DNA of 50,400 nucleotides from a virus, in the IMG/VR virus record IMGVR_UViG_3300034651_000168. One strand, written 5' to 3'. This document shows, piece after piece, positions 716-31,772 of the stretch. Position numbers and translations under genes: made by a program. How positions within the stretch are numbered: the first letter of the stretch is position 1; every line of letters starts with the position of its first letter. The notes below the pieces were generated by a model. It was given only the letters and a program-made list of their open reading frames with translations, did no database searches and had not been told where the DNA came from.

Positions 716-735
716 TTATTCACTATTCGAGGAAA

Positions 736-787
736 ATATACCTCCCTATTATCGTTTAGATAGATTTTAGGAAGGTATATTTTTTTC
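736..787 (+). terminator. putative intrinsic terminator
   Basis: Stem ATATACCTCC / GGA-AGGTATAT (one bulge, large loop) followed by a T-run. Confidence 0.4.
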
Positions 788-822
788 ATTCAAAAAGATA
801 GTTTTATAGTTCCAAAGACCCA

Positions 823-969
823 ATTTCCACAAAAAAATTCACTGATTGCGGAACGTGCGGAAAATCGTTTATGTAACCGTTAAATTTCAACGCTTATAGC
901 GGAAAATGGTTTACATAATGCAGAATATCGGTAGTTGTATCTAGGTTATCAACAGTTTTCTGTGGGCAA
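823..969. promoter_or_regulatory. DnaA-box-like cluster upstream of the plasmid-type rep gene (candidate origin accessory region)
   Basis: Three near-matches to TTATCCACA: ATTTCCACA 823-831 (7/9), TTATCAACA 946-954 (8/9), and TGTGGGCAA 961-969 (7/9, inverted). Confidence 0.25.
857..918 (+). repeat. two 20-bp direct repeats (iteron- or centromere-like)
   Basis: GCGGAAAATCGTTTATGTAA (857-876) and GCGGAAAATGGTTTACATAA (899-918) are 17/20 identical, with starts 42 bp apart. Confidence 0.5.
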
Positions 970-1082
970 GTCTTAAAAAAGAGGATTCTAGGAGATTATC
1001 AAACTGACAGTAGAAAAGTTTCGCTTTAAGTGGATTTATCTATTCCTTTTTGTCGGAATCTGATATATTATAGAGTATAAAG

Positions 1083-1190
1083 AAAAATAAAGTCCACGTT
1101 GGTAGCGTGGACGGTGAAAGTTCCTTATTCAAAGTAGGCATTCTTGGCAGGAAGCCTTTGAATTAAGAGGAACTCTTATGCAATAGTTGT
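1083..1190 (-). ncRNA. candidate countertranscript (antisense) RNA of about 105 nt, opposite the rep leader
   Basis: Minus-strand -35 TTGTTT (1225-1220), 17-nt spacer, -10 TATAAT (1202-1197). Long imperfect hairpin 1119-1174. Minus-strand terminator hairpin GTCCACG-N7-CGTGGAC (1092-1112) followed by a U-run (1091-1083). Confidence 0.35.
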
Positions 1191-1277
1191 ACCCATATTA
1201 TACAATGGGCAAACTAAAAAAACAATAGATAATACCTTTAAACTTCCTGCCAATATATATTTGGGAGGATTTTTTTA

Positions 1278-2204
1278 ATGGATAATTCAGAGATAATGAG
1301 ATTTATTTATTGGGAACAATCAAGTCGAGATACGATTGATTTTAAAAAATCGTATGTAGACCTAGCGGATGATTTAGTCGCAGGATTGCTGTTATCTCAA
1401 ATCGTATACTGGCATTTACCTTCAAAAGAAACAGGAAAGACCAAGTTACGAGTAAAGAAAGACGGTCATCTTTGGATAGCAAAAGGCAGAGAAGATTGGT
1501 GGGAAGAAATAAGAATCACAGGAAAGCAGTTTGATAGAGCCAGCAATATTCTAGCTAAAAAAGGATTGATAGAAAAGAAGCGTTTCAAATTCAATAGCAA
1601 TCCAACCGTTCATGTCAGATTAATTTGGGAAAACTTTTTACCTAGATTAGAGGATATTATATTAAATGCAAACGAGGAAGAATCCGAGGGAAAATTTGAG
1701 GAAGATACCGAAGAAACAGGGGTGGAACCGTTGGGAGACATGGTTTTTCCCCAAAGGGTAAAATCGAATTTCCCCAAAGGTAAAAAACGAAATTCCCCAA
1801 AAGGGAAAATGGAAATTGACCAAAGGGGAAAATCTTTAACAGAGAGTACAGCAGAGATTAAGACAGAGAATAATACAGAGATTAACCCTAAAAAAGATGT
1901 TTCAATTGTTAACAAGGACGAACTAAAAAATATTTGTAATAACTACTTTTCAGAACTAAGCGTTGGAAGATGGTCAAAGAAAGAATGGTTTACGCTTATT
2001 GATAAATTTGTTCAAGAATTAATAGATAGTAAGAAACTAGATTCGATTCACGATATAGAATCCTATATCAAAGTATCATTGGAAAATATCGCTTATAAGC
2101 ATGATTTAAAATACGGAAAGCTAGATACCTATAATATTGCGAAACAAGAGGAATCAAATCGAGATACGAGCATTTATTATAATTGGTTACTAGAAGATGA
2201 TTAA
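1278..2204 (+). CDS. plasmid-type replication initiator (RepA_N-like winged-helix N-terminus)
   Basis: N-terminal pattern LLLSQIVYW...DGHLWIAKGREDWWEEIRITGKQFDRASNILAKKGLIEKKR...NPTVHVRL resembles RepA_N initiators of Firmicute theta plasmids. The central part is encoded by iterons. SD GGGAGGA. Confidence 0.5.
   Translation: MDNSEIMRFIYWEQSSRDTIDFKKSYVDLADDLVAGLLLSQIVYWHLPSKETGKTKLRVKKDGHLWIAKGREDWWEEIRITGKQFDRASNILAKKGLIEKKRFKFNSNPTVHVRLIWENFLPRLEDIILNANEEESEGKFEEDTEETGVEPLGDMVFPQRVKSNFPKGKKRNSPKGKMEIDQRGKSLTESTAEIKTENNTEINPKKDVSIVNKDELKNICNNYFSELSVGRWSKKEWFTLIDKFVQELIDSKKLDSIHDIESYIKVSLENIAYKHDLKYGKLDTYNIAKQEESNRDTSIYYNWLLEDD
1747..1838 (+). repeat. four tandem 22-24-bp iterons inside the rep ORF (candidate oriV)
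   Basis: TTCCCCAAAGG-type units start at 1747, 1769 and 1793; a degenerate TTGACCAAAGG unit starts at 1816. Translated as FPQRVKSNFPKGKKRNSPKGKMEIDQRGKS. Confidence 0.55.
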
Positions 2205-2209
2205 AGGAG

Positions 2210-2431
2210 GTGAGGATAATCGAACGACAGGAATCAGTATTAGTCGATTTGGAGCGTTCTATTTCGAGTGGGTACGTTACCTATTGGAAACCTTTCAAAA
2301 GAGGATATACGACAAATTTAGAAGAAGCAGGACGTTACCTAGAAGAAGAAGCGAAAGAGATTGAAGCGAACGACTTTGACAAAAGAACAGTTGCAATTAA
2401 CCAGTCCGTCATAGATAATATCCTTAGATGA
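2210..2431 (+). CDS. hypothetical protein (rep/par operon)
   Basis: GTG-start ORF 6 nt after the rep stop, with SD AAGGAGG. Confidence 0.55.
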   Translation: MRIIERQESVLVDLERSISSGYVTYWKPFKRGYTTNLEEAGRYLEEEAKEIEANDFDKRTVAINQSVIDNILR

Positions 2432-2450
2432 CGGATTGGGGGATTTTTCA

Positions 2451-2810
2451 ATGGAAAAGTTGATTAAGGCAAATAACGATTTAAAAGATTTACCTAGGTT
2501 TATGAACCATCGATCAGCTAGAATGTGGTTTAAGGAACGCATAGGAAATCGCTTTGTTATGGTGGATACGACAGTCATAAACAACGTAAAATTTTACATC
2601 TATCATCTTGTTCACGATAAATTGACTTATGCTATGTCGGTGAACGCAATGAGAGAAGGAATGCCATTCCAACAGAGCGACTTCAAAAACAGCTTTATAG
2701 AACTTGAAATAAGCGAGGAAGGTTACATTTTTATTAATGAGAGGGGAAACGCTTTTGAGTTATCAGACGAAAGAACAAGCAATAGGGTATATCCTAAAAG
2801 CAGTCATTGA
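2451..2810 (+). CDS. hypothetical protein (rep/par operon)
   Basis: ATG at 2451 follows SD GGGGGA. The track ORF begins at a TTG at 2436. Confidence 0.6.
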   Translation: MEKLIKANNDLKDLPRFMNHRSARMWFKERIGNRFVMVDTTVINNVKFYIYHLVHDKLTYAMSVNAMREGMPFQQSDFKNSFIELEISEEGYIFINERGNAFELSDERTSNRVYPKSSH

Positions 2811-3069
2811 TACAGGAAGCAGTAGACAGGAATTAAGAGAAGTCTATCTTGTAGCAAGGCAAGGAATCAAAGAAATGCTAGAAGGCAGAGAAGATAATCG
2901 AATGGATAATATGCTTACAAACATTATATTAATGGATTCCCTAGATACGCTTGAGAAAGATAAGGAATACAGTAAAAAGGCGGAAGCCAATCTTTATGAT
3001 GGGTACGATAGATTCACCGTAGAGGAAGCAGGAGACTTCTTTAAAGCGTTCGCAGTCATTTTAAAATAA
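2737..3069 (+). CDS. hypothetical protein (rep/par operon)
   Basis: ORF overlaps the previous one. The start is more likely the TTG at 2755, behind SD GAGGGGA. Confidence 0.55.
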   Translation: MRGETLLSYQTKEQAIGYILKAVIDTGSSRQELREVYLVARQGIKEMLEGREDNRMDNMLTNIILMDSLDTLEKDKEYSKKAEANLYDGYDRFTVEEAGDFFKAFAVILK

Positions 3070-3082
3070 GGGGGAACAGATT

Positions 3083-3859
3083 GTGACAAGGAAGATTGCG
3101 GTATCCACGAACAAAGGCGGTGTCTTGAAAACATCAATCACCGTCAACCTTGCAGGGATTTTAAGTAAGGAAGGTAAACGAGTTCTAATTGTCGATACAG
3201 ATAATCAAGGGAATACGTTGCTTTCATTTGGTATGAATCCCGATGAATTAGAGCATTCTATTTATGATGTATTAGTTGATGGGTACGACGTGAACCAGGC
3301 AATCATCAAGGACGTTCATAAAAACATTGATATTTTACCGAGCAATGATGAAATGGCGTTTTTCGAGTTTGATGTATTGACCAAGATAAAATTATATCCC
3401 GAACCATTTAAAATGCTGAAAAGCAGTTTAGAAAGAATCGAATCGAAATATGATTATATTTTAATTGATACGCCACCGAATTTAGGATTAACACAAGGAA
3501 ACGCATTGACAGCCACAGACGAGGTTTTAATTCCATTCCAACCGGAAAATTACTCTATGCGTTCATTGGTGAAAATCCTATCATCTATTCAATCGTTTAG
3601 AGATGACCATAATCCAAGATTAAAGGTGTTAGGAATCGTAGCAACGCTTGTAGACCAACGAACAGTATTGCATTCGCAGATACTCCAAGAGTGCCGCAAG
3701 TATTGTTACGAGCATAATATAAAAATGCTTGAAACGGTTATACCTAGAACAATACGTTATGCAAGCAGTGTCGCTTATGAAGGATTACCTGCAACACTAA
3801 CAGAAAAGAATAATAACCTAATTCAAGCGTATATTGATTTAAAAGAAGAAATACAATAA
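3083..3859 (+). CDS. parA: ParA/Soj-family partition ATPase (small, type Ib-like)
   Basis: Deviant Walker A STNKGGVLKTS, ILIDTPP Walker B-like motif, 258 aa with no N-terminal HTH. GTG start behind SD GGGGGAA. Confidence 0.85.
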   Translation: MTRKIAVSTNKGGVLKTSITVNLAGILSKEGKRVLIVDTDNQGNTLLSFGMNPDELEHSIYDVLVDGYDVNQAIIKDVHKNIDILPSNDEMAFFEFDVLTKIKLYPEPFKMLKSSLERIESKYDYILIDTPPNLGLTQGNALTATDEVLIPFQPENYSMRSLVKILSSIQSFRDDHNPRLKVLGIVATLVDQRTVLHSQILQECRKYCYEHNIKMLETVIPRTIRYASSVAYEGLPATLTEKNNNLIQAYIDLKEEIQ

Positions 3860-3878
3860 GAGAAATGGGGAACTTGCA

Positions 3879-4175
3879 ATGAGTAAAAAGAGAACTATAT
3901 CTAGTTTTAATGAGGTTGCCAACGATAGCGATATTAACAAAAATATTAATAGTAATAGTGATAACAAAGACGATATTTTAAAAAGCGTCACCAAAGATAA
4001 GAAACCGAAAGACCAGACGCATACGTTCAAAGGATACTGGTTAGAAAATAAAGTCGCGAATGAGATAGACCGAATGACAGACGGACACCCAAAAGGAACG
4101 AAATCGGAATTTATTAACCAAATCATCAAGAATTACTTGATAAGTGAAGGAAGATTACCAAGAGAGGAAGATTAA
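3879..4175 (+). CDS. ribbon-helix-helix centromere-binding partner of ParA (ParG/omega-like)
   Basis: Immediately downstream of parA. Disordered Lys/Asn-rich N-tail, then a strand-helix-helix pattern HTFKGYWLENKVANEIDRM...KSEFINQIIKNYL. Confidence 0.55.
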   Translation: MSKKRTISSFNEVANDSDINKNINSNSDNKDDILKSVTKDKKPKDQTHTFKGYWLENKVANEIDRMTDGHPKGTKSEFINQIIKNYLISEGRLPREED

Positions 4176-4505
4176 ATGTTTGATGGTGAAATGGTATCGG
4201 AACAGATCGCCAGAGAATACGCAAAAAAAGTCGATGAAGTCATTAAAAGGAAACTCATAGAATTATCCTATAAAGCCTTATACGAACGAGAATATAAGCT
4301 ATATGACATACTTCATGAAATCGAGGAAGGAAATATAAACGAGAAGAAGGTTGAACAATTCAAGGATAAGCTAAACGAGGAAGGATACCTTTTAAGCGTA
4401 GAAATGCCCGAAGCCGATATTTCATTTGATGAAAATAGTTACTATGCAAATATGAATCCGAATGAAATTAAGATAAAAATATATAAAGAAATACTATCAG
4501 ATTAG
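4176..4505 (+). CDS. hypothetical protein (last gene of the rep/par operon)
   Basis: ATG abuts the previous stop. A terminator follows. Confidence 0.65.
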   Translation: MFDGEMVSEQIAREYAKKVDEVIKRKLIELSYKALYEREYKLYDILHEIEEGNINEKKVEQFKDKLNEEGYLLSVEMPEADISFDENSYYANMNPNEIKIKIYKEILSD

Positions 4506-4533
4506 GAAGGGTGCGGAATACCCTTCTTTTTTT
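4506..4533 (+). terminator. intrinsic terminator
   Basis: GAAGGGT-N7-ACCCTTC followed by T7. Confidence 0.8.
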
Positions 4534-4542
4534 ATTAGTTTT

Positions 4543-4595
4543 TTCCACTAAAAGCGTACTTTACTCTTTACAATCGTAAAGGTTATTGATATAAT
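4543..4595 (+). promoter_or_regulatory. early promoter cassette A with palindromic operator
   Basis: -35 TTTACA (4567-4572), 17-nt spacer, -10 TATAAT (4590-4595). Palindrome CTTTACAATCGTAAAG (4566-4581) lies over the -35. TTCCACTAAAAGCG at 4543-4556. Confidence 0.7.
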
Positions 4596-4935: not shown

Positions 4936-5145
4936 ATGTTGAAGGTTATCGAGTATTTAGAAACGCAAACAGATTTAGAAGGATTAGAACTAGCAGACGG
5001 AACAGAATTTGGTTATTTATTCTTTGGATATAGAGTTGAAAACAGTTCAGAGGAATTAGAAATACACGTCACGTTCACGAATCAAGTTTTTATTAATGGA
5101 GAGGAACAGGAAATTTTTCTACCGTTCAGCGTATGTTCGCTGTAA
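4936..5145 (+). CDS. hypothetical early protein, paralog of 48538..48750
   Basis: Shares the pattern I-x-[YF]LET-x-T-[DE]-[LV]EG-[LI]E...GY-x-F-x-G...SEEE-[LI]EI-x-VTFT...LPF-x-V-x-SL with the 70-aa ORF at 48538. Confidence 0.75.
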   Translation: MLKVIEYLETQTDLEGLELADGTEFGYLFFGYRVENSSEELEIHVTFTNQVFINGEEQEIFLPFSVCSL

Positions 5146-5174
5146 ATATCAGTATTAATATTAATATCAATAAA
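5144..5174. repeat. AT hexamer array 2
   Basis: AAATATCAGTATTAATATTAATATCAATAAA. Confidence 0.6.
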
Positions 5175-5717: not shown

Positions 5718-5888
5718 ATGAAAGTATTTGAAGTAATCATTAAAGAGGAACTTGTTAAAACAAAGGTAGTAGGAGCAGAAAGTGAAGCAGAAGCAATTGA
5801 TAAGGTAAAGCAGATGTATCACAACGAGGAAATAGAGTTCGACTGGTCCGATTTTAGCGATGTAACGTTTGAAGCAAATAAATATTAA
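5718..5888 (+). CDS. small hypothetical protein (56 aa, not in the ORF track)
   Basis: SD TAGGAGGAA, then ATG at 5718: MKVFEVIIKEELVKTKVVGAESEAEAIDKVKQMYHNEEIEFDWSDFSDVTFEANKY. Confidence 0.6.
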   Translation: MKVFEVIIKEELVKTKVVGAESEAEAIDKVKQMYHNEEIEFDWSDFSDVTFEANKY

Positions 5889-5915
5889 TATCAATATCTT
5901 TATTATTATTGATAG
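5880..5915. repeat. AT hexamer array 3
   Basis: AAATATTAATATCAATATCTTTATTATTATTGATAG overlaps the stop codon of the 5718 ORF. Confidence 0.6.
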
Positions 5916-7879: not shown

Positions 7880-8260
7880 ATGAAGGAACTAAAAGTAATA
7901 GTTAAAAATACAGGAGAGCCACCGAAGGAACAAGTCATCGAGGATTCACTCGAGGGGTTACAAAAATTAGTAGGTGGATACATCGAGGTTACGATGATAA
8001 CGCCAGAGATATTACTTATATTGAACGAGGAAGGAAAACTAAACGGATTAGAAGAAAACTTTGCTATCGTTACATTCGAGGAAAAAGGGGAAGTATTCCA
8101 AAACCAAGTTCACGATATTATTTGCGGAAATTGTTTTTTCGTAGCAAGTAACGGAGAAGAATTTGCTTCATTAAGCGAGGAACAAGCGTACTTTATTCAA
8201 TCCCAATTTAATTTAGATGGAACGATATTTGCCATCGACAGAAAAGAGGTAGGTATCTAA
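7880..8260 (+). CDS. DUF3846-like protein
   Basis: N-terminal pattern ...EDSLEGLQKLVGGYIEV... resembles DUF3846, which is seen in phage and plasmid early regions. Confidence 0.5.
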   Translation: MKELKVIVKNTGEPPKEQVIEDSLEGLQKLVGGYIEVTMITPEILLILNEEGKLNGLEENFAIVTFEEKGEVFQNQVHDIICGNCFFVASNGEEFASLSEEQAYFIQSQFNLDGTIFAIDRKEVGI

Positions 8261-9695: not shown

Positions 9696-9741
9696 AAGAA
9701 GAAGGGAATCCTCTTTTAAGAGTTCCCTTCTTCTTTTTTTG
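9694..9741. terminator. bidirectional terminator between convergent genes
   Basis: AGAAGAAGGGAA (9697-9708) pairs with TTCCCTTCTTCT (9723-9734), with inner CTCTT/AAGAG pairing. Flanked by an A-run and a T7 run. Confidence 0.8.
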
Positions 9742-10084
9742 ATTTAGGAAGCCTGTCACGTACAATAACCTCCAACAAATCAACGATTGGTCCGAGTTCT
9801 TCTTCTGATAAAGGAACGCCGTTCCAATTCAAATTTTCTTTCTTCAAATACTTTGAAGCGTCATATTCCAACTCTTTTATATCGGGTTCGTCTGTCAGCC
9901 CTAAGATGTAATCTACCGACACGTTGTAAAGCTTGGACAATTTCATTAAGTTTTGAATAGGTGGCTTTCTATCTTCTGTCTCATACCCTGCATAAGTAGA
10001 GCGGCCAACTTCCAACTTGTCTGCGACTTCCTCGATTGTCCAATGCTGTTTCGTGCGTAGTTTCTTTAGTCTAGCACCAAACAT
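9716..10084 (-). CDS. CI-like XRE-family repressor
   Basis: HTH MFGARLKKLRTKQHWTIEEVADKLEVGRSTYAGYE. The start is set at 10084 (SD GGGGGAA), because the upstream ATG at 10141 lies inside the -10 of its own promoter. Confidence 0.8.
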   Translation of the reverse strand: MFGARLKKLRTKQHWTIEEVADKLEVGRSTYAGYETEDRKPPIQNLMKLSKLYNVSVDYILGLTDEPDIKELEYDASKYLKKENLNWNGVPLSEEELGPIVDLLEVIVRDRLPKSKKEEGNS

Positions 10085-10098
10085 TAGCAAGTTCCCCC
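10082..10098 (-). promoter_or_regulatory. repressor translation-initiation region, copy X of the GGGGGAA(A)CTTGCTAATG motif
   Basis: The reverse complement of 10082-10098 is GGGGGAACTTGCTAATG. Confidence 0.8.
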
Positions 10099-10139
10099 AA
10101 TCTAATTTTAATACTTCTTTAATATTATTCCCCCAATCC

Positions 10140-10167
10140 ATTATAGGTTAAAACTGAATATATTCAA
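10140..10167 (-). promoter_or_regulatory. repressor promoter with palindromic operator candidate
   Basis: Minus-strand -35 TTGAAT (10167-10162), 16-nt spacer, -10 TATAAT (10145-10140). The 12-bp palindrome TGAATATATTCA (10155-10166) overlaps the -35. Confidence 0.55.
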
Positions 10168-10305: not shown

Positions 10306-10518
10306 ATGAGTAGAAAAAGAATATGGATGGTTAAGCACCGACTAGAAAAAGATTTAACGCAAGTCGAGTTAGCGAAAAAAGTAAACATATCAAACCGTAC
10401 CATTTCAGAGATAGAAAGGGGGAACAGAAACCCATCGGGAAAGTTAGCTAAGAAATTAGCAGACGTACTAGAAGTTGATATGTCGAAGTTTTTCGAGGAA
10501 GAAAATGAAATCGCATAA
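10306..10518 (+). CDS. Cro-like XRE-family HTH regulator
   Basis: LTQVELAKKVNISNRTISEIERGNRNPS motif. Divergent from the repressor gene. Confidence 0.8.
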   Translation: MSRKRIWMVKHRLEKDLTQVELAKKVNISNRTISEIERGNRNPSGKLAKKLADVLEVDMSKFFEEENEIA

Positions 10519-12821: not shown

Positions 12822-13955
12822 ATGAGCGAGAATAAGACAAAGTTTTCAACATCACTAGCAAAAATAAATGACGCATATTTCCCAATGATTGAAAGACAGC
12901 TTACAGGAAACGGAATCCAAATGGACGATTACAGCAAGCAATGCGTATTAAACGCTATTTCTTCTATCAACAACGCATTAGACCAGAAAGGAATCACCTG
13001 GAACGACCCACAACTAGACCAGTCGAACATAACGGAAATCCTATTAAACGTAGCGTCATTAAAACTCAATTCATCAGCAAGCCCGAACGAAGTTTATTTC
13101 CAAGTAAGAAACGTCAAATTTCAAAAGAGAAATGAAAATGGAAAGCTAGTAGACGATTGGCGCAAGCAGATTGAAATGGGAATCGAGGGAGACGGAAACG
13201 ATGCCATCTTATCGAGATTTGGACGAGATGTTGAAACCGTTCATCAGTTTTGGGTAGTTCGAGAAGATGACGACTTTCAATATCCATCGTATGAAGGAAT
13301 CGAAGTCACACCCCCGAAATGGACGCCAAAGGGAACAGGAAAGGCGGTCCGAGTAGTTTACCCTATCGAAAAGAGAAACGGACGCATTGAGTATCATATA
13401 TCCGAGCGTGAGGACGTTATTAAAAACCTTATCGCTCACGTAAAAAATAATATGATGAATGAAACGTTTGGACTTGCCGAAAGCAAATATAAAGCGACAC
13501 CTAAGCAGAAACAACAGATTGAAGATAAGAAAAATGAAGTCATCGACAGTATTAAAGCAAAAGGTTTAGATGGAGCGTTAAATGATAAAGAACTTCAAAA
13601 ATATATCAGCCCAGCTTGGAAAGACGAACAGTCGAAAGAATCCATGATATTACGGAAAATGAGAAATAACGTTGTGAAGCGGATTCCAAAGGATTTTGGC
13701 ATAGCATTACGAGAATTAAGCTATGAAAACAGCACGAACGATTACGAGAATCGAATCCGTAAAGACGTAAGCGAACAAGCCAACGGGGAAGTATTAGACA
13801 TTATCGACCACGAGGAAACAGTCGAGGAAGAAGAACCCGAGCCAGAAAAACCGAAAACAGAGGAAACAGAACGCCAAGAAAAAGAGAAACCAAAGGTGGT
13901 AACAAAAGAGGAACAACAAGAATCGAATCCATCAGAGAGTAAACCACCGTTCTAA
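12822..13955 (+). CDS. putative single-strand annealing protein (RecT-like) with an acidic SSB-like tail
   Basis: Sits between the ATPase and the MBL hydrolase. EVYFQVRN...IEMGIEGDG pattern. Glu/Lys/Pro-rich C-terminus ending ...SKPPF. Confidence 0.4.
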   Translation: MSENKTKFSTSLAKINDAYFPMIERQLTGNGIQMDDYSKQCVLNAISSINNALDQKGITWNDPQLDQSNITEILLNVASLKLNSSASPNEVYFQVRNVKFQKRNENGKLVDDWRKQIEMGIEGDGNDAILSRFGRDVETVHQFWVVREDDDFQYPSYEGIEVTPPKWTPKGTGKAVRVVYPIEKRNGRIEYHISEREDVIKNLIAHVKNNMMNETFGLAESKYKATPKQKQQIEDKKNEVIDSIKAKGLDGALNDKELQKYISPAWKDEQSKESMILRKMRNNVVKRIPKDFGIALRELSYENSTNDYENRIRKDVSEQANGEVLDIIDHEETVEEEEPEPEKPKTEETERQEKEKPKVVTKEEQQESNPSESKPPF

Positions 13956-14900: not shown

Positions 14901-15045
14901 AATCCAATGCGCTATGTGTCGAGAGTATAGCTTGAAAATAAAAGAAGGAATCCAAACCTGCAGAATATGCGGTCAAGGGCATGAGATAACATTCGAGGGA
15001 GAGTACATCATCATCAACCCATCTAATGAGCACAGGAAAGCATAG
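14893..15045 (+). CDS. zinc-ribbon mini-protein (50 aa, not in the ORF track)
   Basis: MAKIQCAMCREYSLKIKEGIQTCRICGQGHE... Overlaps the upstream stop. Confidence 0.5.
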   Translation: MAKIQCAMCREYSLKIKEGIQTCRICGQGHEITFEGEYIIINPSNEHRKA

Positions 15046-15058
15046 AGAGGGTGAGGAC

Positions 15059-15952
15059 ATGCGCAAAGACGCTTATTACTTTTCTCATGATACGAACGCA
15101 AGGAGAGACCCGAAGATATTAGCAATGATAAGCGAGTTCGGAGCGGAAGGTTACGGAATATATTGGATGGTTATAGAAATGTTGGCCGAACAGGAAGGAT
15201 ACAAGTTAGAACATAAAAAATGGGTATCGCATGCGATTGCTATGGAAACGCAATGCGAACGCAATACGGTTGTATCCTTCATCGAAAAAGGAATCGAGGA
15301 TTACGAATTATTTAAGTCAGATGGTGAATATTTTTGGAGCGAATCGTTACTAAGGCGAATGGAAATAAAAGATTCTAAACGAAAAAAGAGAAGTGAAGCA
15401 GGGAAGGCAGGAGCCTTGGCACGATGGGGAAAAGAGAAGAAAAAAGAAGATAACAAGGAATGGCAATCGCATGGCAATCGCATGGCAGACGCATACGAAC
15501 GCAATGCGGATTATAGCAAAGGAAAGGAAAGGAAAGAAAAGGAAAGTAAAGAAAAAGAGATACGTTCCAAATATAAATTTGAAACGCACCATATGAAATT
15601 AGCCGAACTACTCTTTAAGAAGATTCAAGAGAATAATCCTAATGCAAAGAAACCTAGCTTGGAATCATGGGCAAACACATTTCGTTTGATGATGGAACGA
15701 GACGAACGAGAAGGAAAAGAAATTCAGCACCTTATCTTATGGACGCAGCAACATCATTTTTGGTACAAGAACATCTTATCTGCAGATAAATTAAGAAAGC
15801 AGTACGACAGATTATTACTAGAAATGAAAGACGATAACAAAGCAAAAGTTATAGGTGGTGAAAGTAATGGAACACATCGGAGAAAGCCTAAAACGAGCTA
15901 TGAAGGAACAGACGTTGCCGAGTTGGACTTTAATAAGAGAAGGATATTGTGA
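15059..15952 (+). CDS. replisome organizer (DUF4373 N-terminal domain plus DnaD-like C-terminal region)
   Basis: AYYFSHDTNARRDPKILAM...GAEGYGIYWMVIEML matches the Lin1244/Lin1753-like N-terminal pattern. Start at 15059, behind SD GAGGGTGAGGA. Confidence 0.7.
   Translation: MRKDAYYFSHDTNARRDPKILAMISEFGAEGYGIYWMVIEMLAEQEGYKLEHKKWVSHAIAMETQCERNTVVSFIEKGIEDYELFKSDGEYFWSESLLRRMEIKDSKRKKRSEAGKAGALARWGKEKKKEDNKEWQSHGNRMADAYERNADYSKGKERKEKESKEKEIRSKYKFETHHMKLAELLFKKIQENNPNAKKPSLESWANTFRLMMERDEREGKEIQHLILWTQQHHFWYKNILSADKLRKQYDRLLLEMKDDNKAKVIGGESNGTHRRKPKTSYEGTDVAELDFNKRRIL
15229..15509 (+). repeat. repeat cluster inside the organizer gene (candidate lytic origin)
   Basis: Tandem 11-mers TGGCAATCGCA x2 and TGGCAGACGCA (15461-15493). 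An inverted copy GCATGCGATTGC is at 15229-15240. AACGCAATGCG-type repeats are at 15247-15269 and 15496-15509. Confidence 0.5.
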
Positions 15953-16703
15953 CGGTTGCGAATATCCTATAAAGGTTTACGAAACGGAAATATTAGGTGG
16001 ACCGAAAAAGGGAGAAAAAACCGAAGTCACATACGGTTGTAAATGCGAGGATATAAAGATTGCGAAACAGGCATTAGCGAACAAGCGAAAAGATGAAATT
16101 AGGAAAGTCAGAAAACATTTCGATTCCTATTCGCTTATCAGTAAAAAGTTGAAAAAAGCGACCTTGGAGAATTACAAGCCACAGAATAAATCGCAAGCTA
16201 TCGCAAAACGAAGCGTGGAAAAGTTTATTGATACGTTCGATTTAGACGAGCCGATGAACATTCTTTTTACAGGCGGTTATGGCGTAGGAAAAAGCCATCT
16301 AGCAAAAGCATTAACCGATGGAATCATGGAAAAAACGAACCCAAACACCGAACAGAAATACAGATCTATTTTTATTAGCGTTCCTAAGTTGTTGAGGAAA
16401 ATACGAGCAACTTATAATCCAGATTCAGATGTCAGTGAGGATGACATTTTCAGCGTTTTAGAAGATGTTGACGTTCTAGTTTTAGATGATATAGGAGCGG
16501 AAAGGCAAAGCGATTGGACAGACGAACGGTTATTTGACCTAATCGACAGCCGACAGGGAATGCATACGATTTACACAAGCAACTATGGAGTAGATGATTT
16601 GATGGAGTTGTTAGAGGAACGGAATTTTAGCCGAGTAGTGAACGAGGATACCTACATTATCAAAGTGGAAGGAAAGAACTACCGATTAAGCGATTTACAG
16701 TAA
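15867..16703 (+). CDS. DnaC/IstB-like AAA+ helicase loader
   Basis: Walker A GGYGVGKSHLA and Walker B VLVLDDIG, with an N-terminal Cys cluster. Overlaps the organizer gene by 86 nt. Confidence 0.8.
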   Translation: MEHIGESLKRAMKEQTLPSWTLIREGYCDGCEYPIKVYETEILGGPKKGEKTEVTYGCKCEDIKIAKQALANKRKDEIRKVRKHFDSYSLISKKLKKATLENYKPQNKSQAIAKRSVEKFIDTFDLDEPMNILFTGGYGVGKSHLAKALTDGIMEKTNPNTEQKYRSIFISVPKLLRKIRATYNPDSDVSEDDIFSVLEDVDVLVLDDIGAERQSDWTDERLFDLIDSRQGMHTIYTSNYGVDDLMELLEERNFSRVVNEDTYIIKVEGKNYRLSDLQ

Positions 16704-18968: not shown

Positions 18969-19072
18969 AAAAGATATGGGGAATCTTTGCAGGACTATCA
19001 ATATCACTTTCAATATTAATATTAATGATGATAGGCGAGTTTATCGAAGCTGTTCAAATATTAGGAGCGTAA
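18965..19072 (+). CDS. small membrane peptide (35 aa, not in the ORF track)
   Basis: ATGA overlap. MKKIWGIFAGLSISLSILILMMIGEFIEAVQILGA. Confidence 0.45.
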   Translation: MKKIWGIFAGLSISLSILILMMIGEFIEAVQILGA

Positions 19073-21130: not shown

Positions 21131-21203
21131 AAAAGGTGATAGTATAAGAATTAGCAAGTTTCCCCCAGTTCAAGCTATCACCTTTTAGGTGGTGGCTTTT
21201 TTT
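21131..21203 (+). ncRNA. structured RNA element at the early/late junction carrying an anti-initiation-region sequence
   Basis: AAAAGGTGATAG (21131-21142) pairs perfectly with CTATCACCTTTT (21175-21186). The loop contains ATTAGCAAGTTTCCCCC (21150-21166). A terminator follows. Confidence 0.5.
21174..21203 (+). terminator. intrinsic terminator 34 nt upstream of the first late gene
   Basis: 10-bp stem GCTATCACCT-TTT-AGGTGGTGGC followed by T7. Confidence 0.8.
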
Positions 21204-21236
21204 GTTTTGTATCATAGAGAGAAAGAGGGAACGCCA

Positions 21237-22403
21237 ATGAAGATTTATAAGAAAAACAACGTATTCGAGGAAGCATTAGAGCGCATACGTTTTCTGTTCG
21301 ATGAATTTGAGGAAGTATGGGTATCTTTTAGCGGTGGGAAAGATAGCACCGTTATTTACAACCTTGCTAAAATCGTAGCAAGAGAAAAGGGGAAATTGCC
21401 CTTAAAGGTTGTTTTCCTAGACCAAGAAGCGGAATACGAGCACACGATTGAATTAGTCAGAGAAATTATGTATGACGAGGACGTAGAGCCATACTGGATT
21501 CAAGTTCCTATTAAGCTATTTAACGCCACATCAACACAAGATGAATGGTTGCTATGTTGGGACGAGGATAACCCCGATAAATGGATACGAGAGAAAGACC
21601 CTATTTCCTATAAAGAAAATCATTGGGGAACAGATCGTTTCGCAGACTTCTTCTTAAAGTTCATGAATGCGGAATCGAAGGCAAGAGACAACATGAAAAT
21701 GTGCTACCTAACAGGAGTACGCACCGAGGAATCACCTTCACGTTACATTGGATTAACTACTTCACCAACTTATAAATGGATTACCTGGGGAAAGAAAAAT
21801 CAGTATAACAAAAATACGTTTTCCTTCCACCCTATTTATGATTGGTCATACACAGACGTATGGAAAGCGATTCATGATAACGGTTGGGATTACAACAAGA
21901 TTTACGATTATCAATATCAGCATGGAGTAAGAACGCAGGATATGCGAGTGTCGAATCTTCACCACGAAACCGCAGTCCATCACTTGTTTTTCTTGCAGGA
22001 AGTCGAGCCAGACACCTACCAAAGATTAACGCAGCGAGTAAAAGGAATGGACACCGCAGGGAAGCTAGGGAGAGATGATTACTTTGTTACTGAACTTCCT
22101 TTTATGTTTAAGGATTGGAAGGAATACCGAGATTACTTGCTAGAAAAATTAATTACGAACGAGGAACACCGAGAGAAAATGCGAAAAGACTTCCACCGAA
22201 CGGAGAAGAAATATATTCCTGCGGTTAAAGCGAATTCTATTTATAAGACGCATATCAGTATTATTCTCACAAATGATTATCATGGTACGAAGCTAGGAAA
22301 CGCAGAAAACAGATGGCGTTTGCAGTTACGAGATTACGAGAGGGAGCGGAAACGAAATGCAATGGCTAAAAGAAAAGCTAAACGAGAGCAACGACAAAAA
22401 TAA
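21237..22403 (+). CDS. IbrA-like PAPS-reductase/PP-loop ATPase with DUF3440-like C-terminal domain
   Basis: PP-loop VSFSGGKDST. C-terminal MRVSNLHHETAVHHLFFLQEVEPDTYQRL pattern. Start at M17 of the track ORF. Confidence 0.65.
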   Translation: MKIYKKNNVFEEALERIRFLFDEFEEVWVSFSGGKDSTVIYNLAKIVAREKGKLPLKVVFLDQEAEYEHTIELVREIMYDEDVEPYWIQVPIKLFNATSTQDEWLLCWDEDNPDKWIREKDPISYKENHWGTDRFADFFLKFMNAESKARDNMKMCYLTGVRTEESPSRYIGLTTSPTYKWITWGKKNQYNKNTFSFHPIYDWSYTDVWKAIHDNGWDYNKIYDYQYQHGVRTQDMRVSNLHHETAVHHLFFLQEVEPDTYQRLTQRVKGMDTAGKLGRDDYFVTELPFMFKDWKEYRDYLLEKLITNEEHREKMRKDFHRTEKKYIPAVKANSIYKTHISIILTNDYHGTKLGNAENRWRLQLRDYERERKRNAMAKRKAKREQRQK

Positions 22404-23019
22404 ATTCCTAAACGAGTTACGAGAGTTTGTTCATGAACATTCACCAGTAAAACATAATCCAGTAGACCTTGTTCGATGGGTACCATACACAAAAGTTCAA
22501 GCGAACGATTATAACCCAAACCAAGTTGCTAAAAATGAAATGAGTTTACTTCACACAAGCATTAAGCATGATGGATACACACAGCCTATCGTTACGGTTT
22601 ATGACGAAAACCTAGATAAATACGTTGTCGTTGACGGATTCCACCGTTACAGCGTTATGCGGCACTATGAGGATATACGAAAAAGGAATAAAGGATTATT
22701 GCCAATCGTGGTTATCGAGAAGGATATTAACGACAGAATGGCGAGTACGATTCGACACAACCGAGCGAGAGGGAAGCATAGCGTTCAAGGAATGTCGAAC
22801 ATCGTATTTAACATGCTAGATAACGGTTGGACGGACGCAGAGATTATTCACGAACTAGGAATGGAGTATGAGGAATTAATTCGATTGAAACATATTACAG
22901 GATTCAGCAAGCTATTCGAGAACGCCGAGTATTCCAAGGCGTGGGAAACCAAAAAGCAATTAAAGCTAAAAAAGGAATATAAAGAAGAACAAAAAGAAAA
23001 GGAGAATGAGAATGGTTAA
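22357..23019 (+). CDS. IbrB-like ParB/Srx N-terminal domain protein
   Basis: VVVDGFHRY and STIRHNRARGKH motifs. Overlaps the IbrA-like gene by 47 nt. Confidence 0.65.
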   Translation: MQWLKEKLNESNDKNKFLNELREFVHEHSPVKHNPVDLVRWVPYTKVQANDYNPNQVAKNEMSLLHTSIKHDGYTQPIVTVYDENLDKYVVVDGFHRYSVMRHYEDIRKRNKGLLPIVVIEKDINDRMASTIRHNRARGKHSVQGMSNIVFNMLDNGWTDAEIIHELGMEYEELIRLKHITGFSKLFENAEYSKAWETKKQLKLKKEYKEEQKEKENENG

Positions 23020-23668
23020 AAAATGGGATTATGGCGGAGCACATGATAGATACCCGATTGAAGAAAATGAGGTATGGAGCGTAGACGATGGGAAAGGGAA
23101 GCTAAAACCGCATGACTTATACGAGCCTTTACCCGATTTTATGAAGGAAGCGGATATGGTTATTGTTGACCCTCCTTGGAACTTATCGAACGTCAATACA
23201 TTCTATACGAAAGCAGATAAGCGAGGGGAACATACGAAAACATTTAACGAGTTCTATCAGCAGTTATTCAAACAGATAGACGTTATCGACCCGAACATTT
23301 TATATACCGAGATTGGGAAGCAGAACGTCAATAAGTTTGTTGAGGAATTTGAGAAAAGATTCCCTTATGTTCAAGTATGGCAAATAACGTACTACAAGAA
23401 GCACCCTTGCTATTTCGTGAGAGGGAGCAAACATTCACCTTTAGAATCGTTCGATTATGAAGGAATGGACGAATGGGATGCCATTCTAAAAGCGTTGGAA
23501 ATCGAGGATTATTCAACCGTAGCAGACCTTTGTATGGGGAGAGGTTTAGTTGCGGTTGGCGCATACGATAACGATAAACGATTTGCAGGAACAGAATTAA
23601 ACAAGAAACGTTTGGCAGTCACCATTGAAAAAATAGCGAAAAAAGGCGGTAAATGGAAAAAAGAATAA
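23006..23668 (+). CDS. DNA methyltransferase (DPPW catalytic motif)
   Basis: VIVDPPWN motif IV precedes a SAM loop DLCMGRGLVAVG (beta-type order). Confidence 0.65.
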   Translation: MRMVKKWDYGGAHDRYPIEENEVWSVDDGKGKLKPHDLYEPLPDFMKEADMVIVDPPWNLSNVNTFYTKADKRGEHTKTFNEFYQQLFKQIDVIDPNILYTEIGKQNVNKFVEEFEKRFPYVQVWQITYYKKHPCYFVRGSKHSPLESFDYEGMDEWDAILKALEIEDYSTVADLCMGRGLVAVGAYDNDKRFAGTELNKKRLAVTIEKIAKKGGKWKKE

Positions 23669-23681
23669 AAGGGGAAGGACA

Positions 23682-23861
23682 ATGAAAAATAAAACCGTTG
23701 TTAAACTTAGAAAAGCGAAAGAAGAAGGAATCCTAACCAATCAACAATTCAATACATTAAAAGGACAAGTTCTAAGCGGTCGTGAACGAGCGGCCGCCAA
23801 AGGATTTATGTCAATCATGAAATCAAATAAAAAAGAAAGAGAAAGGAAAGAAAACAATTGA
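23682..23861 (+). CDS. small basic hypothetical protein (59 aa, not in the ORF track)
   Basis: SD GGGGAAGGA. MKNKTVVKLRKAKEEGILTNQQFNTLKGQVLSG... Confidence 0.45.
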   Translation: MKNKTVVKLRKAKEEGILTNQQFNTLKGQVLSGRERAAAKGFMSIMKSNKKERERKENN

Positions 23862-24619
23862 AAATTGAAAAGAGAAATATCGACCTAATCAAACCGTATT
23901 GGAGAAACCCACGAAAGAATGAAAATGCAGTCGAAGCGGTGAAAGAATCTATTAAGCGTTACGGATACACGCAACCGATTGTCGTTGATAAGGATAACGT
24001 GATTATTGCAGGACACACACGCTATAAAGCGTTGCGTCAATTAGGATATAAAAATATTGCAGTCGTTCTATTGGATATAGACGAGGATAAGGCAAAGCAA
24101 TATCGAATCGCAGATAATAAAACAGCAGAAATGTCCGAGTGGGACGATGACCTTCTCATGTACGAATTAAGGGAAATCGAGGAACTAGAAGATATGACCA
24201 TCTTCTTTGACGATGGCGAACTAGACAGCCTATTAGATATACGAGATGAAGATTATGATTTTGACGATGACTTTGACGAGGAAGAAAGACGGGAAGAATT
24301 AGAAGAAGAAGCAAGAGCGACAGTCGTTGCTAGTCTAGGAACAGACGTAGATAAAGAAGATGAAGAAGTTCAAGAACAGATCGAGGAAAAAGTAGAAGCG
24401 CAAGTCAACGAGGAAATGAAAGAAGATATTCGAGAGAAAATGAAAGAAGAAAACGAGCGCATTAAAGAGCGAGAAAAAGAAATGAAAAACCAATTTAAAG
24501 AACGGACAGAGGACAGAGAGGACGATTACATTGAAATTCAGTGCCCACACTGCGATGAAAAATATATTCTTTCAAGGAGCGAACTACTTAGAGCCAACAA
24601 AGTACGAAGAACAGTATAA
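23858..24619 (+). CDS. second ParB-like N-terminal domain protein with acidic linker and C-terminal zinc knuckle
   Basis: PYWRNPRKN...GYTQPIVVDKDNVIIAGHTRYKAL pattern, as seen in ParB-methylase fusions. TTG start. Confidence 0.65.
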   Translation: MKIEKRNIDLIKPYWRNPRKNENAVEAVKESIKRYGYTQPIVVDKDNVIIAGHTRYKALRQLGYKNIAVVLLDIDEDKAKQYRIADNKTAEMSEWDDDLLMYELREIEELEDMTIFFDDGELDSLLDIRDEDYDFDDDFDEEERREELEEEARATVVASLGTDVDKEDEEVQEQIEEKVEAQVNEEMKEDIREKMKEENERIKEREKEMKNQFKERTEDREDDYIEIQCPHCDEKYILSRSELLRANKVRRTV

Positions 24620-27357: not shown

Positions 27358-27377
27358 TATTAATATTGATATTAAAA
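27353..27377. repeat. AT hexamer array 4
   Basis: ATTAATATTAATATTGATATTAAAA overlaps the terL stop. Confidence 0.6.
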
Positions 27378-31737: not shown

Positions 31738-31743
31738 AAATAA

Positions 31744-31772
31744 CAATATTAATATCAATATTAATTTTAATA
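31744..31772. repeat. AT hexamer array 5
   Basis: CAATATTAATATCAATATTAATTTTAATA lies just upstream of the capsid gene SD. Confidence 0.6.

Follow-up and report, generated by a model that had tools for sequence, protein, structure and literature searches.

How does a temperate phage persist in its host when its genome encodes no enzyme for integration? The question is raised by the operon at 1278-4505 of a viral stretch of 50,400 nucleotides (IMG/VR record IMGVR_UViG_3300034651_000168; hereafter the window), which a preliminary description had read as a plasmid-type replication and partition operon. Every element named in that description was found where it had been placed. As a full low-copy plasmid maintenance unit is present and an integration enzyme is not, the phage most likely persists as a plasmid, and we consider it probable that the window is the genome of a temperate siphophage that forms lysogens not by integration but as a circular plasmid of low copy number (i.e. 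a phage-plasmid).

The window represents a whole circularly closed siphophage genome of 50,345 bp, with an exact 55-bp overlap between its ends. A second, independent assembly (Logan SRR7705359, 50,172 bp) is circularly permuted and spans the junction of the window; the genome is complete and without host flanks. A circular assembly is equally expected from headful-packaged, circularly permuted virion DNA. TerL was assigned to Terminase_6N/6C. The morphogenesis and lysis set is intact and unbroken (TerS/TerL, portal, MuF, protease-scaffold, capsid, tail, tape measure, Dit, Tal, holin and amidase), the genes are tightly packed, and no pseudogenes are evident in the genome. Nucleotide similarity to any phage or plasmid was not found in the collections searched.

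The CI/Cro-type switch reported previously is borne out by HTH_3 matches of both regulators (Table 1), CI being the sole clear minus-strand gene. The same holds for the separate DnaD-like/DnaC-like replication module at 15.0-16.7 kb. Here the product of 15026-15952 matched Lin1244_N and DnaD-like/replisome-organizer families, with internal repeats at 15429-15555, and the product of 15855-16703 matched IstB and DnaC-like loader families. This module is presumably lytic.

Recombinases were searched for by Pfam scans of both strands of the complete genome, covering all 150 ORFs with a length of 60 aa or more. No match to Phage_integrase, Resolvase, Recombinase, rve/DDE or ResT-TelK was found, that is, no integrase, resolvase, transposase or protelomerase, in agreement with the earlier claim that tyrosine and serine recombinases, transposases and protelomerases are absent. 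Because the window ends overlap and the permuted assembly spans the junction, this absence covers the complete genome. The profile searches proposed with the preliminary description (recombinase, ParA, RHH and RepA_N profiles) were run as well, and no recombinase was detected. The recombination genes present are those of homologous recombination only (RecT-like, RecU and SbcC-like). An integrase would usually be placed between 47.7 kb and 9.7 kb (across the origin), and there all ORFs except rep and parA are shorter than 145 aa. Outside the structural genes, the sole ORF of at least 150 aa without a confident assignment is found at 23006-23668 (220 aa) and has a weak methyltransferase match.

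Table 1. Positions of the features discussed in the text, numbered from the first nucleotide of the window.
Feature	Position	Strand	Description
Direct repeats GCGGAAAATNGTTTAYRTAA	857-876 and 899-918 (region 846-918)	+	2 matches vs 0.09 expected
GCGGAAC box	~848	+	In the region of direct repeats, 846-918
Predicted counter-transcribed (antisense) RNA	1083-1190	-	~108 nt; long hairpin, then intrinsic terminator
Leader-hairpin loop TTGGCAGGAAG	1144-1154	+	Complementary to 1243-1253 and to the antisense-RNA loop
Predicted antisense-RNA promoter	1197-1225	-	TTGTTT (1225-1220), 17-nt spacer, TATAAT (1202-1197)
CTTCCTGCCAA	1243-1253	+	10 nt 5' of Shine-Dalgarno GGGAGGA (1263-1269); invariant columns
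Replication initiator rep	1278-2204	+	308 aa; PHROG initiator families, AF2 model, Foldseek
Four 23-bp iterons	1747-1838	+	Consensus TTCCCCAAAGGGnAAAAnnGAAA, dyad core CCCAAAGGG; within linker-coding part of rep
About four 12-bp repeats ACAGAGAnTAnn (ACAGAGA)	1839-1885	+	Directly 3' of the iterons
Three small conserved ORFs	2210-2431, 2451-2810, 2755-3069	+	Between rep and parA (2210-3069)
ParA partition ATPase	3083-3859	+	258 aa; AAA_31, CbiA, phrog_164
Putative centromere-binding partner	3879-4175	+	98 aa; family-level RHH evidence
Last operon ORF	4191-4505	+	104-109 aa
Intrinsic terminator, operon end	4504-4528	+	Terminator scan
Strong promoter-like site	4567-4595		Downstream of the operon terminator
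CI-like HTH repressor	9716-10141	-	HTH_3 1.8e-15, phrog_8
Cro-like HTH regulator	10306-10518	+	HTH_3 9e-17; divergent from CI
Second replication module	15026-16703	+	Replisome organizer and helicase loader

The rep product matched four PHROG replication-initiator families, phrog_6493 (3.7e-13), phrog_9773, phrog_428 and phrog_678, the labels of which include 'replication initiation O-like' and 'DnaD-like'. It consists of a winged-helix N-terminal domain (residues 1-134), a disordered linker (135-210) and a helical C-terminal domain (~211-281); the AF2 model shows the winged helix with confidence and the linker as disordered. The best Foldseek matches in the PDB were the staphylococcal RepA N-terminal domains 4pql, 4pt7 and 5kbj, all weak (E ~6e-3, TM ~0.5). 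Membership of RepA_N is unconfirmed because the protein has no Pfam or NCBIfam match; the Pfam RepA_N profile gave none at E <= 0.1, and an hhalign comparison with pSK41 Rep was not significant. The term 'RepA_N-like' used in the preliminary description is still a fair label for the architecture, given the mid-gene 23-bp iterons as in pSK41 and the weak RepA matches, though by Pfam the protein is not a member of the family.

A total of 318 homologues of the initiator was found, and no experimentally studied member was found among the family. Unlike RepA_N, the family reaches well past Bacillota, into Chloroflexota, Planctomycetota and Deinococcota. On a 10.6-kb MobQ plasmid of Brevibacillus a homologue of 59% identity is the sole initiator-like protein, and on the B. 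mycoides phage-like plasmid p52 (52 kb) a homologue is located ~1.5 kb upstream of parM. In Brevibacillus brevis a homologue is chromosomal, and its immediate neighbours are an HTH_17 gene and a tyrosine integrase. Some distant loci (L017 and L020) carry the N-terminal domain beside, or fused to, DnaD-like and DnaC-like modules of the lytic type, and therefore the family is not exclusively 'plasmid'. The initiator of the window looks plasmid-type.

The leader of rep is predicted to hold a conserved antisense-RNA control element at 1083-1190. The hairpin of the antisense RNA carries UUCCUGCCAA in its apical loop and is followed by a terminator formed by the stem 1112-1092, which was found by the terminator scan, and a U-run. 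The fold has a z-score of -5.1 (-5.5 and -7.6 in relatives), and in the consensus structure 5 of the 26 pairs have compensatory changes. The complete element, i.e. minus-strand promoter, invariant-loop hairpin and terminator, is kept in five relatives. The putative promoter was read from the sequence and was not listed by a simple promoter scanner; in the relatives that differ here (A7) both hexamers are kept and the spacer has diverged, L028 and L029 being near-identical in this region.

The leader loop and the segment close to the ribosome-binding site make up the inverted repeat I24 (11 nt, 100% complementary). The loop motif is invariant across all relatives and is duplicated in L026 and L028 within hairpins of different stems. 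We propose that 1243-1253 is a long-range pairing partner, which would link the structure of the leader to the translation of rep. In the IncI-alpha/IncB plasmids, a loop-to-RBS pseudoknot of repZ is countered by the antisense Inc RNA. The present leader is similar in that its loop has its complement just 5' of the ribosome-binding site and would also be the target of the predicted counter-transcript; hosts and sequences are unrelated, and the window has no leader peptide. Further upstream, the boxes at 846-918 are weak candidates for protein-binding sites (centromere or operator), and similar RGYGGA boxes are located upstream of rep in L026 and L028.

The four iterons, for which TRF gives 3.8 copies, are in codon phases 1, 0, 2 and 1, so all three frames are read, and selection at the DNA level is therefore indicated. 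Within the genome the motif is unique to the array (6 matches vs 0.76 expected). Of the 23 rep genes examined, with that of the window included, 13 have arrays of the same period and position. The four iterons of the window are proposed as the Rep-binding part of its plasmid origin. In 15 of these 23 genes, again with that of the window included, the iteron region is followed by a 12-bp array. Twelve of these 15 arrays have the ACAGAGA core, in several phyla including the GC-rich Deinococcus, and the 12-bp repeats of the window may form the part of the origin that serves unwinding or loading.

We compared this layout with the RepA_N theta replicons of Gram-positive plasmids (prototype pSK41; also pCF10 prgW-prgP/prgO). 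The domain and origin layout of pSK41 Rep and an antisense RNA counter-transcribed in its rep leader have been described (PMC5703833), and when measured here the pSK41 rep gene has, in its middle, a 23 bp x 3.8 array followed by a 15 bp x 3.9 array. The origin anatomy of the window agrees with this prototype, i.e. four 23-bp direct repeats in mid-rep and then shorter ones (12 bp here, 15 bp in pSK41). Also shared are a Rep of ~310 aa with winged-helix N-terminal domain, linker and helical C-terminal domain, an antisense RNA in the rep leader (predicted here) and a neighbouring partition cassette. In sequence, however, neither the iterons nor the antisense RNAs are related, and pSK41 uses ParM/ParR for partition whereas the window has ParA/RHH.

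Initiators such as lambda O (ori-lambda) and those of the SPP1 G38P type bind dyad-symmetric iterons inside their own gene, in the region of the interdomain linker and by an easily melted segment. The proposed iteron layout in the linker-coding DNA of rep is similar, as is the PHROG label 'O-like'. To our knowledge, initiators of this type drive lytic replication and are accompanied neither by antisense copy control nor by a partition cassette; for that lytic kind of replication the window has its separate module at 15.0-16.7 kb.

The small ParA ATPase of the preliminary description was recognised by Pfam AAA_31 (4.4e-50), CbiA (1e-20) and phrog_164 (8e-60), and its matches to NCBIfam ParA_partition and PrgP were both below their cut-offs. 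Its deviant Walker A motif, read from the translation, is KGGVLKTS, and it has no N-terminal DNA-binding extension. In the 98-aa partner, a low-complexity linker joins a conserved basic N-terminus (MSKKRTISSFNEVA) to a C-terminal beta-alpha-alpha domain (RHH-type). A direct family match was not found for this protein. Its 57 remote relatives include matches to RHH_1 (five), Antitox_RHH (five) and RHH_3 (three), the best with E ~2-3e-4, and the profile of its family matches the RHH proteins SvtR (2kel, 6.5e-3), Arc and NikR. The partner described previously as ribbon-helix-helix is thus present beside ParA and, from these weak family-level matches, putatively RHH-type. Its AF2 model was too poor for use.

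Type Ib partition systems such as TP228 ParF/ParG and pSM19035 delta/omega combine a small ParA that has no N-terminal DNA-binding domain with a downstream partner of at most about 100 aa, in which a flexible basic tail at the N-terminus precedes a C-terminal fold of the RHH type. The small ParA and the basic-tailed, putatively RHH partner of the window are similar. Unlike in these systems, the partner has no direct Pfam match (RHH being seen at the family level), centromere repeats were not found beside the partition genes, and parA lacks its own promoter region and is apparently transcribed together with rep.

The existence of the operon at 1278-4505 is confirmed, and at least three relatives have kept it. 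The three small ORFs between rep and parA, without a family match in Pfam, PHROG or NCBIfam, are syntenic with L006 (40-71% identity) and also present in L026 and L028. In these three relatives the rep-par module comes directly after the lysis genes; in the window it is flanked by the lysis genes and the immunity region, as in the Bacillota phage-plasmids. The parA-RHH pair, with the partner always directly after parA, is found in the relatives and in Parageobacillus phage JGon-2020a, which is reported active and whose database entry is a circular replicon of its own within a complete bacterial genome. Phage-like 'plasmids' such as p52 and those of 55-56 kb are many in Bacillus databases.

The closest known class is that of the Bacillota phage-plasmids (B. 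cereus-group plasmid prophages; Pfeifer et al. 2021, PMC7969092; prototype P1), which are frequent in Bacillus and Clostridia (PMC7969092). The window shares with them a complete temperate phage gene set together with genes for plasmid replication and partition, the lack of an integrase and, at ~50 kb, the common size class. It differs in that neither Pfam nor NCBIfam recognises its initiator family and in lacking a dedicated multimer-resolution recombinase, for which P1 has Cre and L006 a small resolvase.

The same operon might instead belong to a lytic or pseudolysogenic (carrier-state) phage, where rep-par would serve lytic or carrier-state replication and positioning and not heritable plasmid lysogeny. 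ParA homologues are indeed many in large virulent Bacillus phages (e.g. FADO, PK-3 and PJN02), and the Rep N-terminal domain stands beside DnaD-like/DnaC-like modules in the distant loci mentioned above. We regard this as unlikely in view of the divergent CI/Cro pair, a second complete initiator/loader module presumably already serving lytic replication, and the location of rep-par at the usual place of integration modules, a position kept in the relatives. The predicted antisense negative control of rep would furthermore suit copy-number limitation, not runaway lytic replication.

Integration through a host recombinase (e.g. Xer at a dif-like site) or through an unrecognised recombinase family would give no reason for the replication-control and partition cassette, and is very unlikely in our judgement. 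The best dif-like sequence of the genome does lie in the intergenic DNA upstream of rep (908-935, minus strand), but it has mismatches at 8 of 28 positions, and no site with three or fewer mismatches was found in the genome. A small ORF has a weak match to HTH_17, an excisionase-type fold (8.8e-4), which would also fit integration; however, no unassigned ORF is big enough for a tyrosine or large serine integrase, and the chromosomal Rep homologue has a canonical integrase plainly alongside. Least probable of all is a plasmid with defective or domesticated phage genes that yields no infectious particles: p52 and the other phage-like Bacillus 'plasmids' offer a precedent, but the full, intact morphogenesis and lysis set, the tight packing and the lack of evident pseudogenes all speak against it.

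For a phage-plasmid, we infer the following sequence of events. After infection the headful-packaged DNA would circularise, CI would repress the lytic genes, and the rep-par operon (~1050-4530), expressed in the lysogen, would keep the prophage as a plasmid. The winged-helix domain of the initiator would bind the iterons in its own gene, the ACAGAGA 12-mers and adjacent A/T-rich DNA would open, and the helical C-terminal domain would recruit host primosome proteins for theta replication. The antisense RNA, running from 1190 to 1083, would pair with the loop of the leader hairpin, which may otherwise interact with the complementary 11-mer by the ribosome-binding site; by occupying this loop, it is proposed to set the copy number. 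ParA and its small RHH-type partner would segregate the copies through a centromere, and upon induction the DnaD-like/DnaC-like module would drive lytic replication. The phage-plasmid lifestyle is a known one; the initiator that would sustain it here belongs to a family spread over several phyla and as yet without a name in Pfam or NCBIfam.

The first and last 55 bases of the window form an exact direct repeat, which is a typical assembler overlap; without it, the genome is an assembled circle of 50,345 bp. An independent assembly of run SRR7705359 holds the same genome as a 50,172-bp contig with another start point, running uninterrupted from the tail and lysis genes across the window ends into rep, the initiator gene. 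Because this contig spans the window junction, the genome lacks host flanks and is complete, and statements on absent genes therefore hold for all of it. One ORF at the junction probably has its start before it.

The G+C content is 33-42% and nearly every gene lies on the plus strand. Packaging and head genes (TerS/TerL with Terminase_6N/6C, portal, MuF, XkdF protease fusion), tail genes (Sipho_tail/SPP1_Dit, Prophage_tail) and lysis genes (SPP1-type holin and Amidase_3) were found, together with recombination and replication genes encoding SbcC-like and RecT-like proteins, an MBL hydrolase, a DnaD-like organizer, a DnaC-like loader and RecU. This is the gene set of a siphophage, complete for morphogenesis, packaging and lysis. 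In Megablast, neither the rep-par module nor the 25-kb structural half had a relative among 50,697 phage and 72,556 plasmid records.

Three regions outside the module deserve mention. Short tandem repeats within the DnaD-like organizer gene may mark a second, lytic origin, likewise embedded in its initiator gene. The cluster immediately upstream of the terminase genes, which includes two ParB_N-domain proteins, looks like a DNA-modification or nuclease cluster outside the partition system. Between the par operon and the repressor, some of the small genes are of families that are common on conjugative plasmids, and the related contig L026 encodes a DarA_C domain; an anti-restriction or establishment module may lie here.

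Features of the genome and of related loci (window positions unless a relative is named)
Feature	Position	Strand	Remarks
End repeat	1-55; 50346-50400		exact, direct, 55 bp
Junction ORF	15-263
GCGGAAAAT boxes	846-918		centromere candidate
dif-like match	908-935	-	intergenic, upstream of rep
Promoter-like site	1067-1096	-	TGGACT-18 nt-TATAAT
Antisense terminator	1112-1092	-	intrinsic; stem, plus T-run
Hairpin loop	1144-1154		UUGGCAGGAA on the mRNA strand
Predicted antisense RNA	1190 to 1083	-	~108 nt
Candidate antisense promoter	1225-1197	-	TTGTTT-17 nt-TATAAT
Loop complement	1243-1253		perfect; 10 nt upstream of the Shine-Dalgarno sequence
rep	1278-2204	+	308 aa
23-bp iterons	1747-1834		3.8 copies (Tandem Repeats Finder); four repeats across 1747-1838
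12-bp repeats	1839-1885		directly past the iterons
parA	3083-3859		258 aa
Partner gene	3879-4175		98 aa
Operon terminator	4504-4528	+	intrinsic
AATATY arrays	4906; 5145-5174; 5881-5904; 19000-19029; 24660-24689; 27350-27373; 31739-31768; 35950-35967; 39563-39586; 45806-45829; 47449-47472; 48962-48979; 50036-50059
Small plasmid-type genes	5718-5888; 7880-8260		DpnD/PcfM-like, DUF3846
CI-like HTH gene	9716-10141	-
Cro-like HTH gene	10306-10518	+	divergent from the CI-like gene
RecT-like gene	12822-13955		377 aa; phrog_2185, 1.5e-130
Second replication module	15026-16703		DnaD-like organizer, DnaC-like loader
Short tandem repeats	15429-15555		ATGGCAATCGC x 2.5; AAAGG or 15-bp units
Cluster upstream of terminase	21189-25145		PAPS_reductase/DUF3440 protein, 220-aa unknown, SAM methyltransferase
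ParB_N-domain genes	22357-23019; 23858-24619		within the cluster
Serine resolvase gene, L006	8188-8784		198 aa; Resolvase + HTH_23
AATATY arrays, L006	9067-9104; 9437-9462
DarA_C domain, L026	6950-7171
12-bp repeat past 23-bp iterons	L004, L006-L008, L012-L016, L018-L021, L023-L025		homologous rep loci, at least five phyla

In temperate Bacillota phages the integrase is kept between the lysis and repressor genes. In this segment of the window, all ORFs are shorter than 145 aa except rep and parA. Pfam was searched with every ORF of 60 aa or longer on either strand, 150 in total, in individual searches and two batch scans with cut-offs of E <= 0.001-0.01. Among the families listed, none of Phage_integrase, Resolvase, Recombinase, rve/DDE or telomere-resolvase was found in these ORFs down to E = 0.0014. 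The only long ORF without a Pfam match encodes the RecT-like annealing protein. One small ORF gave a weak HTH_17 match (8.8e-4); it was not among 10 small candidate ORFs that were scanned again. The best site genome-wide resembling B. subtilis dif has 8 mismatches in 28 positions (5 of 22 within the arms), which is unconvincing as a dif/Xer site; it is probably a chance match, the alternative being an Xer-type multimer-resolution site. The preliminary description had claimed a CI/Cro-type switch, a second and separate replication module, and a genome free of tyrosine or serine recombinase, transposase and protelomerase, and these claims were borne out by the divergent HTH genes, by the organizer and loader genes and by the scan of all ORFs, respectively.

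The initiator, Rep, has no Pfam match at E <= 0.1 and no NCBIfam match. It does match PHROG initiator families, namely a DnaD-like loader (3.7e-13), 'replication initiation O-like' and 'replication initiation protein'. The Rep family profile found nothing among PDB sequences even at E = 10, and an hhalign comparison with Rep of pSK41, the prototype of RepA_N theta plasmids, was not significant (probability 0.5%). In an AlphaFold model built on 24 homologues, residues 1-134 fold confidently into a winged-helix N-terminal domain (pLDDT ~85-95), residues 135-210 make up a disordered linker, and the C-terminal domain is helical. With this model, the top three of 862 Foldseek matches in PDB are staphylococcal RepA N-terminal domains (4pql, 4pt7), closely followed by the Rep-DNA complex 5kbj, and the DnaD N-terminal domain (2v79) has rank 26; the RepA matches are weak (E 6e-3 to 4e-2, TM 0.44-0.51).

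The 23-bp iterons fall exactly in the DNA coding for the disordered linker, and the motif occurs nowhere else in the window genome. The codon phase at which an iteron starts is 1, 0, 2 and 1 in the four copies, so it is the DNA sequence that is maintained and not a repeated peptide. In a survey of 23 rep genes, that of the window included, a 23-bp-period array of ~3-4.7 copies was found at the equivalent position in 13, and a 12-bp array past the iteron region in 15. Bacillota, Chloroflexota, Planctomycetota and Deinococcota are among the phyla represented. Between rep genes the iteron sequence varies along with the Rep protein. An ACAGAGA core is present in 12 of the 15 12-bp arrays, including those of GC-rich Deinococcus, where an ACA codon should be rare. 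This suggests that the 12-mer is a conserved cis element independent of initiator specificity.

Measurement of the pSK41 rep gene gave 3.8 copies of a 23-bp unit between +408 and +494, with 3.9 copies of a 15-bp unit after them. Iteron period and copy number thus equal those of the window, and the position is likewise central in the rep coding sequence. The N-terminal domain of pSK41 Rep binds four Rep boxes placed centrally in rep, the origin DNA encodes the central linker, the C-terminal domain has five helices, and the folds are DnaD-like (PMC5703833). The C-terminal domain of RepA_N initiators recruits host primosome proteins (DnaG); for the window Rep, a helical C-terminal domain is predicted from the model. 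The 'RepA_N-like initiator' of the preliminary description stands as an initiator by its PHROG matches and is RepA_N-like in its origin layout, but membership in Pfam RepA_N was not borne out. We conclude that Rep probably works like a RepA_N initiator, yet it cannot be filed as a member. Rep represents a family that has no name in Pfam or NCBIfam and counts at least 318 homologues in several phyla.

Upstream of rep, 270 nt are conserved in four contigs carrying Rep homologues (L006, L026, L028 and L029). This leader contains, on the minus strand, an intrinsic terminator and a candidate promoter 5' of it, of which both hexamers are conserved and the spacer differs among relatives. The antisense RNA predicted from these signals would consist of a long hairpin and the terminator (fold z = -5.1). 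Its equivalents in relatives have z = -5.5 and -7.6, and longer leaders have two hairpins. Compensatory changes were seen in 5 of 26 stem pairs among four sequences, with an invariant apical loop. On the mRNA strand the loop has a perfect complement just upstream of the Shine-Dalgarno sequence, and we infer a pairing of loop and ribosome-binding site that is countered by the antisense RNA. A counter-transcript control element of the pSK41 RNAI type is therefore predicted in silico; in pSK41 the rep leader carries an antisense RNA of ~83 nt (PMC5703833). Neither an Rfam scan at gathering thresholds nor a tRNA scan gave a hit in the window, so the leader lies outside every known RNA family. No confident plus-strand promoter for rep could be placed, the candidate being TTGTCG at ~1051 (TTGACA in L006). 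A second promoter-like site on the minus strand, conserved in L006, lies just past the antisense terminator and points away from rep; no ORF of at least 40 aa follows it.

The partition genes lie downstream in the same operon. ParA matches AAA_31 (4.4e-50, residues 3-182), CbiA (1e-20) and phrog_164 (8e-60), has a deviant Walker A motif KGGVLKTS at residues 11-18 and lacks an N-terminal DNA-binding domain, in agreement with the small deviant-Walker ATPase of a type Ib-like partition system described before. Its partner has no direct Pfam, PHROG or NCBIfam match. An exhaustive profile search gave 94 remote relatives of similar size, and among 57 aligned relatives some matched RHH_1 (5), Antitox_RHH (5) and RHH_3 (3), with a best E of ~2-3e-4. 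The family profile matches the ribbon-helix-helix (RHH) proteins SvtR (6.5e-3), Arc (0.016) and NikR, in a range of 6.5e-3 to 0.4. In the alignment, a conserved basic N-terminus (MSKKRTISSFNEVA) is joined by a low-complexity linker to a C-terminal strand-helix-helix segment that is conserved too. The top PDB matches of the profile, designed helical repeat proteins, were rejected as compositional, resting on a repeated SELVNE-like helix. An AF2 model from a 4-sequence alignment reached a pLDDT of only 58 and was kept out of the fold search. Thus the proposed RHH partner holds as a conserved small ORF past parA with weak RHH matches at the family level, but not as a direct match.

No clear repeat array was found beside parA or the RHH gene. 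Candidates for the centromere are the GCGGAAAAT boxes and dispersed tandem arrays of the hexamer AATATY, which occur at ~15 sites in the window (44 matches against 0.22 expected by chance) and also in L006. Most of the arrays sit right on a stop codon or where one cistron gives way to the next; examples are the TerL/portal and scaffold/capsid boundaries, the junction preceding the holin gene and the one following the amidase gene. AATATT is its own reverse complement. These arrays could be a binding site of a regulator or of the RHH protein, a translational signal or a structural element.

The syntenic 45-kb contig L006 carries tail and lysis genes, rep, three small ORFs, parA, a 94-aa partner, CI/Cro and SbcC/RecT, with 72% identity in Rep and 91% in ParA. 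Between lysis and rep it encodes a small serine resolvase, which has no counterpart in the window; such resolvases are typical of plasmid multimer resolution. The order lysis, rep, small ORFs, parA, partner is the same in L026 and L028. The relatives suggest a host in Bacillales or akin to Brevibacillus. Other Rep homologues are found on plasmids: a 10.6-kb MobQ plasmid of Brevibacillus composti, which has no other initiator-like protein; the 52-kb phage-like plasmid p52 of B. mycoides (AimR, holin, amidase), where it lies ~1.5 kb upstream of parM; and B. cereus-group plasmids of 50-56 kb. Three Stenotrophomonas phages also encode one, and a 42.9-kb contig of a Marinisporobacter balticus isolate combines Rep with a second phage module (Phage_rep_org_N and DnaB). 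On the Brevibacillus brevis chromosome, by contrast, the homologue adjoins a tyrosine integrase and an HTH_17 gene, which shows what the integrative version looks like. The nearest phage ParA (66% identity) is that of Parageobacillus phage JGon-2020a, in which a homologue of the 98-aa partner follows. This phage entered the databases as one of the replicons of a complete bacterial genome, a separate circle of 55.5 kb, and it has been reported to cause lysis of its strain during growth (PMC12166544).

The best explanation of these features is that the window is a phage-plasmid, a prediction drawn from its sequence. The rep-par operon, with antisense control, internal origin and partition pair, would keep the repressed genome as a low-copy circle, and the DnaD-like/DnaC-like module would serve lytic replication. 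Plasmid-type features are present in the Rep homologues on plasmids, the ParA match of 4e-50 and the conserved parA-RHH pair, and the divergent CI-like and Cro-like genes supply a repressor switch for lysogeny. Rep might instead be a plain second lytic initiator; this is less likely, since rep has a predicted antisense control, is linked to partition genes and has homologues on plasmids. A negative loop on rep suits a copy-controlled plasmid and is not needed by a lytic replicon.

The assembly shows a closed circle without host flanks, and headful-packaged, permuted DNA would be expected to look identical. A carrier state is disfavoured by the divergent CI/Cro pair, the second replication module and the predicted antisense element. 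Integration through a host recombinase is likewise disfavoured; the closest dif-like site is the poor match upstream of rep. Also disfavoured is a defective element; the phage gene set is complete. For the phage-plasmid reading there is ample precedent, as elements of this class are well known and frequently met in Bacillus and Clostridia (PMC7969092), and the window is for this reason a further case of an established type.

What is new is an unnamed initiator family with a fixed origin grammar inside its own gene. A wider reading is tenable but somewhat doubtful. Any kinship of the family with RepA_N and DnaD would be very remote, and the grammar of about four co-varying 23-bp specificity iterons followed by near-universal ACAGAGA 12-mers would always lie in its own linker-coding DNA. 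The 12-mers would give a conserved signal for unwinding or loading that works independently of the host and is common to integrative elements, plasmids and phage-plasmids across a range from Bacillota to Deinococcota and Planctomycetota. The AATATY arrays may be sites of the RHH partner, acting as an omega-like genome-wide regulator and centromere.

The general picture of how phage-plasmids work is unchanged, and the value of the finding lies with plasmid specialists and annotation pipelines. Phage-plasmids in Bacillota are frequent and under-annotated, and the window adds a lineage without nucleotide relatives in the searched collections. As there is no Pfam or NCBIfam model for the Rep family, pipelines that rely on these libraries would miss its elements as replicons, and a profile would improve the detection of plasmids and phage-plasmids. 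About 3.8 kb make up a complete compact replicon (promoter and antisense region, rep with internal origin, parA and partner), and the rep-par module could be a vector backbone for poorly tractable Bacillales.
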